Shown here: piece after piece, positions 17,435 to 59,308 of the stretch
How positions within the stretch are numbered: position 1 is the first letter of the stretch
Layout of the letters: each line of letters opens with the position of its first letter
NCBI GenBank assembly: GCA_038063455.1
Contig: JBBTVB010000002.1
Coordinates: 1,296 to 65,295 of the forward strand
DNA length: 64,000 nt
From: Patescibacteria group bacterium
GTDB lineage: Bacteria > Patescibacteriota > Patescibacteriia > PEXW01
Direction of reading: 5' to 3'
The notes under the pieces: model-generated
Seen by the model: only the letters and a program-made list of their open reading frames with translations
The model's database searches: none
Told to the model about the DNA's origin: nothing
Translations under genes and position numbers: made by a program

Positions 17435-17456
17435 AAAACGCCCTTGTTTTCCTTTA

Positions 17457-17560
17457 CCCCTCCTGCGCCTCCCCTTTGAAAGGGGAGGATATTTATAGTG
17501 CATGCGAACTATCCCCTCCTCTCGGAGGAGGGGTGCCGAACCCGCAAGGGTGAGGCGGGG
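17457..17560 (+). repeat. CCTCC/GGAGG multi-hairpin intergenic repeat, copy 1
   Basis: Closing stem CCCCTCCT/AGGCGGGG. It encloses hairpin A (CCTCCCCTTTGAAAGGGGAGG), an AT-rich spacer, hairpin B (TCCCCTCCTCTCGGAGGAGGGGTG) and a small hairpin C. Confidence 0.75.
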
Positions 17561-17572
17561 CGGTTCTAAAAT

Positions 17573-22375: not shown

Positions 22376-22444
22376 CATACGATAACTTTTTTAAAGTAAT
22401 TGGATTTCCGGGTTTGCCGCCAACTTTTGCAATCAACAAAGTGT

Positions 22445-22491
22445 GGGCGGCATCCCGCCCCATGGCGGGACAAGTCCCACCACCCCGACCA
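22445..22491 (+). repeat. GC hairpins plus duplicated 3' fragment of tRNA-Pro
   Basis: GGGCGGCATCCCGCCCCATGGCGGGA forms overlapping hairpins. It is followed by CAAGTCCCACCACCCCGACCA, compared with the tRNA 3' end CAAGTCCCGGCACCCCGACCA. Confidence 0.6.
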
Positions 22492-22494
22492 AAA

Positions 22495-23700
22495 TTAGTG
22501 TAGGTCCTCTACGCGCTCACCATTTGATGGTGTTGTTGTGTTTTTACCTCGCACAATAAACTTCGCGGCCAGTAGCGTCGCAATCGGTACGGCCAGCACC
22601 AGTGCCGAGCTACCCACTAAAGTCCGAATTACCTCTTCAGCAACCATTTCGCTGTTCAGCGTGGTCCACAGTGGCACCTCGGTATTCATACTAAAAAGTA
22701 AAAGGAGTGGGAAGGCAGCACCGGCATAGGCCAAGACTAAGGTATTCACCAGCGAGGCAATGTGCTCACGGCCAACAACCAATCCGCGACGCACGAGCTC
22801 ACGTCTGGAAAGATCCGGATTCGCCTCGTGGATTTGCGCCACGGCAGCAGTTTGACCGGTGGTAATGTCATCCAGCACGCCCAGCGCACCAATAATAATC
22901 CCGCCCAGGAGCAGGCCTTTCAGGTTAAGATTTTCCAGCGCGCCAAATTGTAAGTAAAACGCTTCTTCGGTACCCACGCCCGAAAGTTTTGCCAGGGAAA
23001 CAAAGAGTAGCGCCAAACCCGCAGCCAAGCCGAGCGTGATGAGCGTACTACCCAGCGCAATGCTGGTGCGCCGGTTAAAGCCGTGCGCAACGTACAACGA
23101 GATGACGGCGATGATGACCGCGCCGACCAAGCTCATACCTAGGGGGCTACTGCCGTTAAGAATCCGGGGGATAATAAAACTGGCGAGCACGACAATGCTC
23201 ACGGCTATGCCGATAATTGACGTAAAGCCTCGCCAGCGCCCGAAGAAGACCACCAGGCCAAAGAATATTGCCACCACCCAAGCCAGCGAGGGCAATCGAT
23301 AGTGGTCGGCAATGTAGTAGGCCACTTCACCATCCACCCCGACATTTTTGAGCAGCACCACGCGCTCGCCGACTGTAACTTTCTGGTAGTCCCGGATAGT
23401 TATTTCCCCACCATGTGCAACGGTAATGCGCTTGCCCTTTTCCGGACCGCGAGTTATTTCCAGTTCAACTTCCTGGTACGGCTGCGGCACGCCGCCTAGC
23501 TCCGTCATCCCCTGGTCAGGAATAGCGACAACTTTCGCGACTACGTATTCATCGGGAACAACCAGGGTTTCGGCTGCAACCGGCTGGCCCAGGCTGTCTT
23601 CTACAAAGACCTCTTCGGTTTCTTGCGCGCGCGCCGCCCCAGCCCAAAGCAACGCTACACAGAACCCGGCGAGAAGTGCTGCCCCAAGGCGAATAGGCAT
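22495..23700 (-). CDS. YibE/F-like polytopic membrane protein
   Basis: Signal peptide, a ~120-aa extracytoplasmic domain, then about 8 TM helices. The family call comes from overall pattern memory only. Confidence 0.55.
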   Translation of the reverse strand: MPIRLGAALLAGFCVALLWAGAARAQETEEVFVEDSLGQPVAAETLVVPDEYVVAKVVAIPDQGMTELGGVPQPYQEVELEITRGPEKGKRITVAHGGEITIRDYQKVTVGERVVLLKNVGVDGEVAYYIADHYRLPSLAWVVAIFFGLVVFFGRWRGFTSIIGIAVSIVVLASFIIPRILNGSSPLGMSLVGAVIIAVISLYVAHGFNRRTSIALGSTLITLGLAAGLALLFVSLAKLSGVGTEEAFYLQFGALENLNLKGLLLGGIIIGALGVLDDITTGQTAAVAQIHEANPDLSRRELVRRGLVVGREHIASLVNTLVLAYAGAAFPLLLLFSMNTEVPLWTTLNSEMVAEEVIRTLVGSSALVLAVPIATLLAAKFIVRGKNTTTPSNGERVEDLH

Positions 23701-45910: not shown

Positions 45911-45930
45911 GGCTATAGTGTAGCAAATTC

Positions 45931-46019
45931 GACCCCTCCCAGCCCTCTCCTTCGTAAGGGGAGGAGTTTATAAAAATCCCCTCCTCTCGGAGGAGGGGTG
46001 GCCAATGGCCGGGGTGGTC
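45931..46019 (+). repeat. CCTCC/GGAGG multi-hairpin intergenic repeat, copy 2
   Basis: Hairpin A (CCTCTCCTTCGTAAGGGGAGG), an AT spacer, hairpin B (TCCCCTCCTCTCGGAGGAGGGGTG, identical to copy 1), hairpin C (GGCCAATGGCC) and the closing GGGGTGGTC. Confidence 0.75.
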
Positions 46020-46585
46020 TACACTTCGTATTTAAACTTCTTCTTTTCTTTTGCTGCGCCACCAAAGAGCATCATGGCCACGATGGGGGCAATTATCCAG
46101 ACAAAGCGCGCGTTGGGCGTGGCAAATACCCACTTGGTTATAGGCGCCAACTTTTCTACGGCCTCTTTCGGCAAGTAGTTAAGGGTCACGCTCACCAGCA
46201 AACCGACATGGAGAACAGAATATAAAAGTACCTGATACCATTTTCCTTTATCGTCGGACGAGGCGATGGTACGGAGCAAGGCTGAATGGGAAAGAAAAAA
46301 GAAGAGCAGAACAAAGACGCCCAAGAACACGCCAATCTTTATGGCGACTGGGGTATTGATAGTTATGGTGGTGATGTTGCCTAGGAATGGCGCGCTGTTA
46401 ACGATGGCCAGGGCCATGTAAATAGACACCATGATAACGATAATCCTGTCCCGACCGAGACTTAAGCCGTACAAAAAAGCCGCAATCACAAAAAACATGA
46501 TGATGAATAAATCCCAGGTAGGTTGGGCCCAGTTAATGCTGGCCCAGAAGCTTTGTGCAGATGTGCCGACCGAAGTCAGGTCCAT
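46019..46585 (-). CDS. hypothetical polytopic membrane protein, 188 aa
   Basis: Five to six TM helices. Long ORF. Confidence 0.6.
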   Translation of the reverse strand: MDLTSVGTSAQSFWASINWAQPTWDLFIIMFFVIAAFLYGLSLGRDRIIVIMVSIYMALAIVNSAPFLGNITTITINTPVAIKIGVFLGVFVLLFFFLSHSALLRTIASSDDKGKWYQVLLYSVLHVGLLVSVTLNYLPKEAVEKLAPITKWVFATPNARFVWIIAPIVAMMLFGGAAKEKKKFKYEV

Positions 46586-53924: not shown

Positions 53925-54051
53925 ATCTGTATTCTAGCACCCTCCCTCCACTTTACCCCCCCCCCGCCTGCCGCAGAAGGGCCGCAGGGGGAAGCGTAAA
54001 AAATAAAATGACCTTCTTAAAATAAGGCCTCAGAATTAGACTAAAAGCTTT

Positions 54052-56178: not shown

Positions 56179-58101
56179 TTACTTCTTAACCTCCTCGTAC
56201 TTCGCATCCACCGGCTCGTCCTTAGACCCTGAGCCTGTCGAAGGGTCATCCTTCTTATCCCCTCCTGCCGCAGGCCCCGAGCTTGTCGAGGGGTCGGCTT
56301 TCTGGTCCTTGTACATCGCCTGACCAATCTTCTGAATCGTCTGCCCCAAATCATCCGTGGCTTTCTTGATGGCATCCTTGTCCTCGCCATCCTTCACCTT
56401 TTTCACGGCCTCGATCTTTTCTTCAACTTCCTTCTTCACGTCGGCCGGGACTTTGTCACCGCCGTCTTTTATCGCTTTCTCCGCCGTGAACACCAAGCTA
56501 TCCGCACCGTTGCGCACGTCAATAAGCTCGCGCTTCTGCTTGTCCTCGTCCGCGTGCAGGGCGGCATCCTGCTTCATGCGTTCCACTTCGTCTTTGGATA
56601 AGCCGGACGACGCCGTAATGGTAATGCTCTGCTCTTTGCCGCTGGCCTTGTCTTTGGCCTTCACGTTGAGGATGCCGTTGGCGTCAATGTCGAACGTCAC
56701 TTCCACCTGCGGCACGCCGCGCGGCGCCGGCGGGATGCCGGACAGGATGAACCGGCCCAGGGACTTGTTGTCCCCAGCCATGGGTCGCTCCCCTTGCAGG
56801 ACGTGAATTTCCACCGAGGTTTGATTATCCGCGGCCGTGGAGAACACTTGGGACTTTGAGGTGGGGATAGTGGTATTGCGCTCGATGAGCGGGGTGGACA
56901 CGCTGCCCAGGGTTTCCAGGCCCACGGAGAGCGGGGTCACGTCCAGCAACAGCACGTCGCGTACTTCGCCTTGCAGCACGCCGGCTTGCACGGCTGCGCC
57001 AATGGCCACCACTTCGTCCGGGTTCACGCCCAGGTGGGGCTTTTTGCCGAAAAACTTTTCTACAGTTGATAGCACCAACGGCATACGAGTCATGCCGCCG
57101 ACCATGATCACTTCGTTAATGTCGGCGGGCGTAAGGCCGGCGTCTGCCAAAGCCTTCTTGGTTGGTTCCAGGGTTTGCTCCACCAGGTCGCCCACCAGCT
57201 GCTCCAACTTGGCGCGGGAGAGCTTGAGTACCAAGTGCTTGGGGCCGGACGCATCCGTGGTAATAAACGGCTGGTTGATCTCGGTTTCCGTGGTGGTGGA
57301 AAGCTCGTGCTTGGCCTTTTCCGCGCTCTCCTTAAGGCGCTGCAGGGCCATCTGGTCGTTGCCCAGATCAATGCCCTGGTCCTTCTTGAACTCGTCGATA
57401 ATCCAGTGGATAATCCGCTGGTCAAAGTCGTCGCCGCCCAGGTGGGTGTCGCCGTTGGTGGCTTTCACTTCCACCGTGTCGTTGGACACTTCCAGGATGG
57501 AAATGTCGAACGTGCCGCCGCCCAGGTCGTACACCGCAATTTTCTCGTCCTTCTTCTTGTTAAAGCCGTAGGCGAGCGCCGCGGCCGTGGGTTCGTTGAT
57601 AATGCGCTTCACCGTAAGGCCGGCAATTTCGCCGGCGTCCTTGGTGGCTTGGCGCTGACTATCGTCAAAATAGGCAGGAACCGTGATGACCGCTTCGGTA
57701 ATTTTCTCACCGAGCTTGGCTTCGGCGTCTTCTTTCATTTTTTGGAGGACGAGCGCGGAGATTTCTTGGGGGGCCATAGATTTGTCACCCATGCTCACTT
57801 TAACGCCTTCGCCTGCTTGGACAACTTTAAACGGAAAGACTTTGACGTCGCGTTGGACTTCTTCGTCGTTCCAGTGCCGGCCAATCAGGCGCTTGATGGA
57901 GTAGAGCGTATTTTGCGGGTTCACCACGGCTTGGCGCTTGGCCACTTGGCCCACCAGGCGCTCGCCGGTTTTGGAAATAGCTACAACAGAAGGCGTGGTG
58001 CGGTTGCCTTCCTTGTTTTCTAGTACCTTTGGCTCACCGCCTTCGATGATGGCCATGCAGGAGTTGGTTGTACCGAGGTCGATACCGAGAATTTTTGACA
58101 T
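56179..58101 (-). CDS. dnaK: chaperone DnaK (Hsp70)
   Basis: [17 protein letters not shown] and VGGMTRMP blocks. 640 aa. Confidence 0.97.
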
Positions 58102-58143
58102 AGTTACGGAGAGATTAAAGAGTTAGTTGATTAGTGAAGTAAG

Positions 58144-58302
58144 AATTACCACCCCGCCCCGTGCTCGGGGCACCCCTCCTTAGTTAAGGAGGGGAGGCTA
58201 AGGAAGATGATGAATGGGGAAAGAAAACGTTTTGAGTGTTTGTCTCCCCTCCTCGGATGAGGAGGGGTGGCTCCCGCTACTGCGGGAGATGGGGTGGTAA
58301 TT
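58144..58302 (+). repeat. CCTCC/GGAGG multi-hairpin intergenic repeat, copy 3
   Basis: Closing stem ACCACCCC/GGGGTGGT. Hairpins CCCCG-TGCT-CGGGG, CCCCTCCTTAGTTAAGGAGGGG, TCCCCTCCTCGGATGAGGAGGGGTG and TCCCGC-TACT-GCGGGA. Confidence 0.8.
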
Positions 58303-58642
58303 AGTTCGTGAGAGAATCGCTGTCGAGCACTTTGTGCAGTTCCATAATGTCATCACTGTCCACGTCATTCACATCCTTGAACTTCATCACATCCTGCGCG
58401 GTCAAGTCCGTTATCATCCCGCGGAACATCAGGCCTTGGGGCGACATGGTCATGGTGGCCACGGCCGACGTGCCGCAGTTGCCGCACTTCAGGTGGAGCA
58501 GGGTGGAACCATTTTCTTCGGCCAGCACCTGCGTCTTGCGGAAGTCGAACAGGTTGCCGCAGCTGGGGCAGTGGCCGTCCAGGCGCAGGTGGTCGGACTT
58601 GTTGCCATCTTTACCGAAACTGGGAAGGGCGAATTGGGCCAT
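58301..58642 (-). CDS. zinc-ribbon protein, 113 aa
   Basis: CPSC...(24 aa)...CGNC four-Cys pattern with an acidic C-terminus. Sits between grpE and dnaK on the same strand. Confidence 0.65.
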   Translation of the reverse strand: MAQFALPSFGKDGNKSDHLRLDGHCPSCGNLFDFRKTQVLAEENGSTLLHLKCGNCGTSAVATMTMSPQGLMFRGMITDLTAQDVMKFKDVNDVDSDDIMELHKVLDSDSLTN

Positions 58643-58664
58643 AGGGTAGTTAGTTTTGGGGAGG

Positions 58665-58810
58665 AATTACCACCCCCTGCCCCCTCCTTTTCGTAAGGAG
58701 GGGAGGCAAAGGGTGAAAATCCATACGCCTAATGAAATGATCTTTCTCTCTGCTTCCCCTCCTCGGATGAGGAGGGGTGGATCCCGCTACTGCGGGAGAC
58801 GGGGTGGTAA
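58665..58810 (+). repeat. CCTCC/GGAGG multi-hairpin intergenic repeat, copy 4
   Basis: Same architecture as copy 3. The last ~60 nt differ from copy 3 at only 2 positions. Confidence 0.8.
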
Positions 58811-58813
58811 CCC

Positions 58814-59308
58814 TTACTCGCTCACCGTCACTTTTGCGTGTCGTATTACTTTACCTTGAATAGTGTAGCCGCCAGTGCTTTCTTCCAGAATCGTGTGCGG
58901 CGCTGTTCCTTCCTGCTTTTTCTTAGCCACGGCTTCGTGCATTTCCGGGTTAAAGGTTTGGCCGACGGTTTGAATTTCTTCCACACCCATGGTCTTGAGC
59001 ATGTCGCGGAATTGCCGCAGGATGTGGTCAAACCCTTGGACCCAAGATTCTTTGGTCAGGTTTTCGGGCACGTGCTTCATGGCGGTCTTCAAGTTATCCA
59101 GGATGGGTAAGAGCTCCAGGAGTAAACCCGCGTTGGCAAACTGCACAATTTCCATTTTCTCTTTTTCTGTGTCGCGCTTCAGGTTGAGGTAGTCGGCCTT
59201 GGCGCGCTTCCAGCCGTCCAAATATTCCTGATTGAGCTGCTGGAGTTTTTCCAGATCCGTCAGGACTTTCTCGGTGTCTTTTTCTAAGGTGGTGGGTTGG
59301 TCGGTCAT
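58814..59308 (-). CDS. grpE: nucleotide exchange factor GrpE
   Basis: Coiled-coil N-terminal region, then F.P..HEA.......EG......E...GY.....V.R.A.V.V. Confidence 0.9.
   Translation of the reverse strand: MTDQPTTLEKDTEKVLTDLEKLQQLNQEYLDGWKRAKADYLNLKRDTEKEKMEIVQFANAGLLLELLPILDNLKTAMKHVPENLTKESWVQGFDHILRQFRDMLKTMGVEEIQTVGQTFNPEMHEAVAKKKQEGTAPHTILEESTGGYTIQGKVIRHAKVTVSE

Follow-up and report, generated by a model that had tools for sequence, protein, structure and literature searches.

The stretch of DNA analysed here (the window) comprises 64,000 nucleotides (nt) of contig JBBTVB010000002.1 from a Patescibacteria group bacterium and contains four copies of an intergenic inverted-repeat element, designated c1 to c4 in the order of their positions. 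Each element consists of two inverted copies of one repeat that, by its sequence, follows the rule of an intrastrand triplex, and repeats of the same kind flank genes for small nucleases of the DUF559 family (PF04480) in other genomes. The bounds and contexts of the four elements are as follows.

17452-17568, c1: between the terminator after a Big_2 open reading frame (ORF; plus strand) and the stop codon of uppP/BacA (minus strand)
45928-46022, c2: between the stop codon of a 188-aa ORF and the start codon of cysS, both on the minus strand
58144-58302, c3: between the stop codon of ORF113 and the start codon of dnaK, in a minus-strand operon
58665-58812, c4: between the stop codon of grpE and the start codon of ORF113, in the same minus-strand operon

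All four copies are intergenic and near a start or stop codon, and c3 and c4 flank ORF113 within the minus-strand hrcA-grpE-ORF113-dnaK operon.

The four elements and their half-units

A description made from the letters of the window (the sequence-only reading) had presented each of the four copies as a closed multi-hairpin element, in which an outer closing stem encloses a hairpin A, an AT-rich spacer, a nearly invariant hairpin B and a small GC hairpin. The number of copies, their positions, their common orientation and their intergenic sites beside start or stop codons were confirmed, with no further copy in the window. The polarity of c1 to c4 is identical, the canonical half is always the right-hand one, and hairpin B (CCCCTCCTC-TCG/GGAT-GAGGAGGGGTG) is exact in 4/4 copies. 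A relaxed hairpin B pattern gave 3 matches in the window against 0.02 expected by chance. A single closed multi-hairpin RNA module was not borne out. A covariance model (R1), constructed from 28 half-units from other phyla without the use of any window sequence, recognized exactly 8 half-units in the 64-kb window, two per element, with expect values (E) from 9e-14 to 0.012; the next-best match was at E=0.4, and the count of four elements is therefore complete for the window. Each element is a head-to-head inverted pair of one DNA repeat of about 40-60 nt.

The half-unit is composed of five segments, namely a pyrimidine arm CCCCTCCT[C/T], a loop of 3-5 nt, the complementary purine arm [G/A]AGGAGGGG, a linker (loop 2) of 3-5 nt or in the form of a self-closing GC mini-hairpin, and a G/T-rich third strand GGGGTGGT[A] as an 8-9-mer. 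The third strand GGGGTGGT is the exact mirror of the purine arm AGGAGGGG, with T opposite A. A family-agnostic finder of this arrangement (the PIT finder), run with the exact rule, matched nothing but the four elements in the 64 kb and gave 0 matches in 20 shuffles. The parts of the half-units are listed below, with the coordinates of the plus strand.

17455-17488 (-): c1 left half-unit; R1 match 17452-17492 (-), E=1.4e-4
17468-17488: c1 left hairpin, read on the minus strand as pyrimidine arm, loop and purine arm CCTCCCCTT-TCA-AAGGGGAGG
17464-17467: c1 left linker, CGCA
17455-17463 (complement): c1 left third strand GGAGGGGTA, an exact 9/9 mirror of the purine arm and also a PIT finder match
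17489-17512 (no strand): c1 AT-rich spacer, from the sequence
17513-17564 (+): c1 right half-unit, from the fold; R1 match 17509-17568 (+), E=1e-10
17513-17533: c1 right hairpin CCCCTCCTC-TCG-GAGGAGGGG
17534-17556: c1 right linker, containing an ACCC-GCAA-GGGT hairpin
17557-17564: c1 right third strand GGGGCGGT, with one mismatch to the mirror rule
45932-45966 (-): c2 left half-unit, partly decayed; R1 match 45928-45968 (-), E=0.012
45943-45964: c2 left hairpin, with one wobble or mismatch and a short linker
45932-45939 (complement): c2 left third strand GGAGGGGT
45978-46018 (+): c2 right half-unit; R1 match 45974-46022 (+), E=9e-14; exact PIT finder match
45978-45998: c2 right hairpin CCCCTCCTC-TCG-GAGGAGGGG
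45999-46010: c2 right linker TGGCCAATGGCC, containing a GGCC-AAT-GGCC hairpin
46011-46018: c2 right third strand GGGGTGGT
58147-58194 (-): c3 left half-unit; R1 match 58144-58198 (-), E=1.2e-12
58173-58194: c3 left hairpin CCCCTCCTT-AGTT-AAGGAGGGG
58156-58171: c3 left linker hairpin GCCCCG-TGCT-CGGGGC
58147-58155 (complement): c3 left third strand GGGGTGGTA, an exact 9/9 mirror
58195-58245 (no strand): c3 AT-rich spacer, aligning with the c4 spacer at its start only
58246-58299 (+): c3 right half-unit; R1 match 58242-58302 (+), E=1.3e-9; exact PIT finder match
58246-58267: c3 right hairpin CCCCTCCTC-GGAT-GAGGAGGGG
58268-58290: c3 right linker, containing a CTCCCGC-TACT-GCGGGAG hairpin
58291-58299: c3 right third strand GGGGTGGTA
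58668-58703 (-): c4 left half-unit, exact mirror; R1 match 58665-58707 (-), E=6.5e-7
58681-58703: c4 left hairpin CCCCTCCTT-TTCGT-AAGGAGGGG
58677-58680: c4 left linker of 4 nt, without a linker hairpin and resembling loop 2 of the Escherichia coli TMECO repeats
58668-58676 (complement): c4 left third strand GGGGTGGTA
58704-58755 (no strand): c4 AT-rich spacer, from the sequence
58756-58809 (+): c4 right half-unit; R1 match 58752-58812 (+), E=1e-8; exact PIT finder match
58756-58777: c4 right hairpin CCCCTCCTC-GGAT-GAGGAGGGG
58778-58800: c4 right linker, containing a TCCCGC-TACT-GCGGGA hairpin
58801-58809: c4 right third strand GGGGTGGTA

Pyrimidine/purine stems of 9-10 bp are present in 8/8 window half-units, within the stem criterion of 6-15 nt. 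Loop 2 measures 3-4 nt in the left halves of c1, c2 and c4 and 12-23 nt, as a closed hairpin joining the ends, in the other five, against published limits of 1-6 nt (ITxF) and 0-10 nt (Hoyne et al.). The third strand mirrors its own purine arm exactly in 6/8 half-units, with a single mismatch in 1/8, and is decayed in 1/8; the ortholog of this last one, the c2 left half in two related contigs (L210/L211), obeys the rules exactly (CCTCCCCT-ctcgg-AGGGGAGG-atta-aGGAGGGGT). The spacers between the half-units differ in length and sequence among the copies.

The outer closing stem (ACCACCCC...GGGGTGGT) described by the sequence-only reading is good in c3 and c4 and poor in c1 and c2, whose left end is (T)ACCCCTCC. 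The c1 left arm is AAGGGGAGG with the third strand GGAGGGGTA, and the plus strand of c1 and c2 therefore starts with (T)ACCCCTCC and not with ACCACCCC. The two end 8-mers are complementary because of the inverted symmetry of the half-units, and the closing stem is a by-product of it.

Further diverged copies were considered at 2230, 22440-22490 and 53935-53995 and were rejected (model E>1). The window segments 53935-53995 and 22416-22495 are intergenic, rich in C and contain small GC hairpins (caccctccctcc...ccccccccc...gccgcagaagggccgcaggggg; ...cccaccaccccgac); they bear a superficial likeness to the elements and are non-members at E>1.

The mirror rule and its covariation

Under the mirror rule, the hairpin and the third strand correspond to T*A:T and G*G:C triads in the antiparallel register. 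Judged by the order of its bases, the half-unit follows the rule of a class II purine-motif intrastrand triplex, like the BoxC/PIT/TMECO repeats of E. coli. Covariation was estimated on 866 strand-instances of perfect pyrimidine/purine hairpins belonging to classes with at least 4 instances (897 in all), with the hairpin's outer 8 nt as the source of the mirror pattern. The own mirror pattern was present within 90 nt downstream in 56.5% of the 866 strand-instances, where about 50% is the ceiling for a downstream mirror because each hairpin is read on both strands. Upstream, the same pattern was found in just 11% of all 897 instances, and mirror patterns from other hairpin classes were found in 7.7%. 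At least 10 variant hairpin classes each carry their own matching third strand, for example AGGAGGAG with GAGGTGGT, AGGGGAGG with GGAGGGGT, and GGAGAGGG with its own pattern. Mirror repeats are not made by duplication or inversion, and what is conserved is, on this comparison, the predicted three-stranded fold; the covariation in the triplex register provides comparative evidence for selection on that fold.

Covariation was also present within the hairpins. Among 146 distinct half-units, 97.3% of the hairpin pair cells were paired, changes on both sides were recorded in 10 of the 14 hairpin pairs, and 0/500 shuffles reached the observed values. The linker hairpin covaries freely and the main hairpin is conserved in sequence. 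The commonest linker, GGCGC-GAA-GCGCC (many loci, e.g. L007, L033 and L155; alignment A3), contains GCGAAGC, an unusually stable DNA mini-hairpin (a GNA triloop closed by C:G); such a linker would fit folding as DNA rather than RNA.

The BoxC/PIT/TMECO repeats (Hoyne et al. 2000, as cited in PMC4666352; Holder et al. 2015, PMC4666352) are built in the same order as the window family: a C-rich and a G-rich arm enclose the first loop, and after a second loop comes another G-rich segment that mirrors the G-rich arm. Both are intergenic, multi-copy and without strand bias, occur as singles or inverted pairs, and occupy loci that vary between close strains. The TMECO pattern is CCCTCNCCC-N3-6-GGGNGAGGG-N3-GGGNGAGGG, with the second G-rich block in the groove of the hairpin, and single-stranded TMECO DNA folded into a stable triplex in vitro (PMC4666352). 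The window family has CCCCTCCT/AGGAGGGG/GGGGTGGT in place of CCCTCNCCC/GGGNGAGGG/GGGNGAGGG, and the TMECO consensus is fitted by 0 window copies, the arms of which are CCCCTCCT[C/T] and CCTCCCCTT; the two are related in kind and belong to different families. Loop 2 of the window family mostly takes the form of a self-closing GC hairpin, 12-35 nt long and above the ITxF limit of 1-6 nt, whereas that of TMECO is 3 nt. T*A:T triads dominate in the window family, which occurs in Patescibacteria, Acidobacteriota, Bacteroidota and others, beyond Proteobacteria and Cyanobacteria.

Occurrence in other genomes and the DUF559 gene

A scan with hairpin B, performed on one genome per species, gave at least 120 loci in at least six phyla, i.e. 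Acidobacteriota, Pseudomonadota, Bacteroidota, Ignavibacteriota, Verrucomicrobiota and Patescibacteria. The matches listed for Pseudomonadota were from Burkholderiales, Gammaproteobacteria and Sphingomonadales, and several were from Patescibacteria. Additional copies thus exist in relatives and in other phyla, and the comparison of the elements with dispersed intergenic palindromic repeats such as repetitive extragenic palindromes (REP), bacterial interspersed mosaic elements (BIME) and miniature inverted-repeat transposable elements (MITE), drawn by the sequence-only reading, was borne out. The composite architecture is identical in other phyla, with the left end as the reverse complement of the right end. 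The halves in Bacteroides are turned the opposite way (hairpin, GC hairpin, GGGGTGGT, spacer, ACCACCCC, GC hairpin, hairpin), and the real unit is therefore the half-element, either single or in one of the two inverted arrangements; singlets and inverted doublets, both head-to-head and tail-to-tail, were observed. The window copies end with GGTAA, most other copies with GGTG or GGTC, and the Bacteroides copies alone with GGTAG. Carriage by phages is not supported, with just 4 motif matches in 2.9 million viral contigs.

Two particular arrangements were recorded. In a Candidatus Kerfeldbacteria contig (L074), the 16S rRNA gene spans 2310 nt (488-2797) with a group I intron at 1455-1885, and a triplex-repeat half-unit is located at 1369-1427, inside the 16S rRNA gene. 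In Terriglobia SPRUCE 48 (L005, L013, L030, L094 and L115), doublets lie within a longer repeat that has an outer inverted motif peculiar to it (ggaagggcggggctt.acaggctgcggaaaaa ...), which suggests nested or composite repeats.

The elements are polymorphic between relatives. In a relative whose ORF113 is 94% identical in DNA, the spacer between ORF113 and dnaK is 32 nt long and contains no element; c3 and c4, missing from this close relative, are therefore polymorphic, as the sequence-only reading had proposed to check. Other relatives carry half-units or doublets in different spacers of the same operon. c2 is kept at the orthologous site in a Hainich relative (CysS 82% identical), where the copy differs by substitutions. 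The empty spacer in the relative L208 is too diverged for exact alignment with the filled site, in which the element ends are TTA...TAA.

DUF559 was the only recurrent gene beside the half-units among the 120 matches listed, the other ORFs being ordinary. It adjoins the repeat in four loci that were selected by the motif, from three phyla (Acidobacteriota, Bacteroidota and two lineages of Patescibacteria). In a Terriglobia SPRUCE 48 metagenome-assembled genome, one DUF559 gene is flanked by doublets and at least 10 gene-less doublets have identical loops; in a Hainich aquifer contig (L125), a DUF559 gene is flanked by doublets in which hairpin A is as in c3 and the TAA-type ends are alike. The reverse test was done on 80 metagenome DUF559 loci fetched by similarity to three repeat-adjacent proteins, 77 of them with testable flanks. 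Inverted repeats flank the gene in 53/77, with identities of up to 98.6% over 73 nt and 100% over 62-67 nt, the variable linker included; R1 matched 60/72 DUF559 loci searched. The PIT finder was applied to the metagenome loci together with seven isolate loci (83 distinct loci), and a triplex repeat was found at most 300 nt from the gene in 71/83, on both sides in 46, often as inverted repeats of 45-75 nt. The repeat density was 4.16 per kb near the gene, compared with 0.11 per kb in the remainder of these contigs (p=6e-107), an enrichment that is in part one of intergenic over coding DNA.

Usually, hairpin, linker and GGGGTGGT are followed by 40-90 nt and the gene, after which come ACCACCCC, linker and hairpin; in Deinococcus and Azospirillum the gene lies within the 'closed' arrangement as in the window. 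By eye, triplex-type repeats were seen beside the gene in the records of Deinococcus, Azospirillum, Neisseria, Picosynechococcus and E. coli, and in part in Sphingomonas. The mobilizable plasmid pAQ6 of Picosynechococcus PCC 7002 (L213, 20473-21999) carries a DUF559 gene with arrays of the CCCCC-loop-GGGGG-tca-GGGGG type on both sides; such all-G triplex motifs are reported to be abundant in cyanobacteria. The repeat variants track the lineages of the DUF559 proteins, the Bacteroides type being an example.

The gene-bearing relatives encode only a DUF559 nuclease of 115-125 aa. At the catalytic-type positions D54, E65, D67 and H71, the same residue is shared by 85-86 of the 86 proteins compared. 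Among solved structures, 3HRL comes closest; it is a DUF559 protein from Neisseria that is uncharacterised. DUF559 (YcjD-like) belongs to the Vsr-fold PD-(D/E)XK clade, which also holds Vsr and the homing endonuclease I-Bth0305I (PMC3424549), and it shares with them the fold and the D...ExD...H motif. By this analogy, homing-type spread through break repair would be a plausible model. In difference from I-Bth0305I, the DUF559 genes are free-standing and not in introns or inteins, and their flanks are repeats and not a split host gene. Literature searches for DUF559, COG2852, PF04480 and ycjD gave no paper linking the protein to such repeats.

In E. coli K-12, the sole DUF559 gene is ycjD (1351407-1351760); a distance of 168 nt separates it from TMECO no. 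9, and it has repeats on one side only. It is present in 3378/5426 complete E. coli genomes and absent from 38%. TMECO-like copies number 1-3 in B2 strains and 10-14 in O157/O145 strains, both without ycjD, and 18-30 in most others; this trend is suggestive and fits a link to the nuclease but is confounded by phylogeny. At the locus itself, between fabI and sapF, genomes carry either ycjD or the eefRABCD efflux operon (L219, K-12 1349300-1352300; L220, ST131), and the homology between the two alleles stops about 40 nt before TMECO no. 9.

Interpretation and alternatives

The four window elements are probably gene-less copies of a selfish, DUF559-linked system of triplex-type repeats that acts as DNA and not as RNA. 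On single-stranded DNA, arising transiently during replication, repair or transcription, the third strand would fold back into the major groove of the hairpin. The DUF559 nuclease would recognise or cut the folded repeat. Elements would be spread or erased as the break is repaired with other repeat copies as the template, so that neighbouring intergenic sites would differ between close relatives. The anatomy, the covariation under the mirror rule, the distribution over phyla, the gene association and the presence/absence polymorphism were observed directly, whereas a triplex in vivo, the action of the nuclease on the repeat and this mechanism of spread are what we infer. The system would be analogous to REP repeats and their doublets (REPIN) with the gene for a REP-associated tyrosine transposase (RAYT).

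Several points weigh against a DUF559-linked system. We know of no biochemical activity for any small DUF559 protein, and a 115-aa nuclease alone cannot do strand transfer, which leaves the route of colonisation unexplained. No DUF559 gene is present within the 64-kb window, and the window copies are therefore orphans. Since the 80 metagenome loci were picked by similarity to repeat-adjacent proteins, the association is established for that subfamily; outside it, support comes from six plasmid-database records and E. coli K-12 ycjD only. The exact-rule finder scored 4/7 isolate loci and missed the E. coli plasmid record, K-12 and Picosynechococcus, and the near-versus-far enrichment has the intergenic component given above. 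The O157/O145 strains keep 10-14 copies without ycjD, so the repeats outlast the gene. Filled and empty sites gave no clear target-site duplication, the comparison being ambiguous. For TMECO, a triplex was not detected in vivo in duplex DNA (PMC4666352).

Passive spread of triplex-prone repeats without any dedicated enzyme, by replication slippage, illegitimate recombination or gene conversion, with DUF559 genes homing into or captured at such sites, is unlikely. In its favour, the repeats remain in E. coli lineages without ycjD, and E. coli ycjD has them on one side only. It also agrees with the report of TMECO loci as hot spots of small deletions and rearrangements, for which no mobility factor was found and no link to any gene or mobile element was reported (PMC4666352). 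However, near-identical arms of 8-9 nt with their third strand across six phyla are hard to obtain without a travelling sequence-specific partner. The copies flanking a gene are matched pairs, variable linker included, up to 100% identical over 62-67 nt; moreover, the repeat variants follow the DUF559 lineages (the Bacteroides type), and the active-site residues of the nuclease are strictly conserved, all of which argue against a merely passive process.

The sequence-only reading had suggested a structured RNA in operon transcripts, serving as a stabiliser of the mRNA, as a processing site or in sequestration of the Shine-Dalgarno (SD) sequence through SD- and anti-SD-like arms resembling a 16S 3' end. 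Such a role is improbable, even though GGAGG and CCTCC occur in the arms, three copies are located within minus-strand operons (cysS; grpE-ORF113-dnaK), and c1 to c4, read from either strand, fold with far greater stability than shuffled sequence (z between -2.5 and -9.9). Watson-Crick pairing of RNA does not account for the mirror third strand or for its covariation. According to PMC4666352, RNA does not form purine-motif triplexes, and the RNA or SD-sequestering reading is therefore not supported. The elements, being inverted pairs, read almost alike from either strand; c1 follows a terminator and has convergent genes on its two sides, and the close relative copes with a 32-nt spacer upstream of dnaK. 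The motif is kept in Bacteroidota, Acidobacteriota and Proteobacteria as inverted repeats around the nuclease gene, and the same units flank that gene as inverted repeats in six phyla, which leaves the SD/anti-SD role without support. Against Rfam, the window and 18 loci yielded no family for the elements at the gathering threshold; the matches were to tRNA, rRNA, a group I intron, a riboswitch and unrelated sRNAs. For 58100-58850, a scan by E-value gave just chance miRNA-like matches far below threshold. The motif strings retrieved unrelated eukaryotic papers only in a full-text literature search. The PIT elements of E. coli have no promoter or terminator activity, as cited in PMC4666352. The hairpins may nevertheless have an incidental effect at the RNA level on the host operons.

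A classical REP/BIME family served by a RAYT (a Y1 transposase), or MITEs that arose from a conventional insertion sequence, would also account for intergenic, palindromic, multi-copy repeats with terminal inverted repeats and for singlets and inverted doublets in both orientations, like BIMEs and REPINs; we consider this very improbable. The likeness to REP/BIME/REPIN with RAYT extends to one gene flanked by inverted copies together with many gene-less singlets and doublets, and to the folding of each unit on single-stranded DNA. However, no RAYT or transposase ORF lies between or beside the half-units among the 120 matches listed, and the sole recurrent neighbour encodes a Vsr-fold PD-(D/E)XK nuclease (DUF559) and not an HUH/Y1 transposase. 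The GTAG or CGTC tag of REPs is not a feature of the window family and is missing from most copies. The unit is a triplex-type mirror repeat, a third strand that REPs, as simple palindromes, do not have; its core is conserved across phyla, whereas REPs are species-specific. With MITEs the elements share a length of 90-170 bp, an AT-rich spacer between terminal inverted repeats (the left half being the reverse complement of the right), intergenic sites, presence/absence polymorphism and longer gene-bearing relatives with the same ends. They differ in that no transposase was found, no target-site duplication could be demonstrated or established, and the gene-bearing relatives encode a nuclease only.

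A local duplication only, or a chance likeness of GC-rich terminator-like hairpins, has a negligible probability: c3 and c4 are 360 nt apart with identical right halves, but c1 and c2 are 12 kb and 40 kb away from them, a model from other phyla recognises all eight halves, shuffles give 0 matches, and a purely local origin, which the sequence-only reading had named as the case against a repeat family, is excluded by these results together with at least 120 loci in other genomes.

The BoxC/PIT/TMECO repeats were first noted in the 1990s. As of 2015 they were without an assigned function, a partner protein or an account of their spread (PMC4666352). Intrastrand-triplex repeats are thus a known kind, and what appears to be new is the sequence family, the hairpin linker, the breadth of phyla and above all the flanking of DUF559 genes. 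The kind is extended to another sequence family in at least six phyla, the tiny genomes of Patescibacteria included. Going beyond the window, the DUF559-linked system would have a wider form in which small DUF559 (YcjD-like) nucleases are the missing trans partners of BoxC/PIT-type triplex repeats throughout bacteria, as a selfish system similar to REP-RAYT with the triplex recognised by a Vsr-fold nuclease and with the window copies as orphans; this is put forward tentatively, as a possibility somewhat short of even. DUF559/YcjD is a candidate protein partner that can be tested directly in E. coli. If the link is true, nature would here provide an example of a protein family associated with DNA triplexes, and the repeats would form a new class of nuclease-associated repeats shaping intergenic regions, here those of a heat-shock operon.

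The gene between c3 and c4, ORF113 (58301-58642, minus strand), encodes 113 aa with two CxxC pairs and no Pfam match. It was considered as cargo of the two elements and rejected, being conserved in the hrcA-grpE-hsp20-ORF113-dnaK operons of element-free relatives. The closest proteins are from Patescibacteria/Parcubacteria. Just 7 clusters of ORF113 homologs were found among 5.8 billion proteins, always directly upstream of dnaK and in one Parcubacteria clade, and ORF113 may be a lineage-specific component of the chaperone operon. In four relatives (L202, L203, L205 and L208), hsp20 lies between grpE and ORF113, where the window has c4 instead (58643-58813); hsp20 was lost or never gained in the window lineage. 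The only public contig with an identical ORF113 is L001 (Hain_H32_02um_R1_52808, 2179 nt) from the Hainich groundwater metagenome. It ends inside c4 and has the right-half sequence of c3 at this end, so the short-read assembly broke or collapsed at the repeat.

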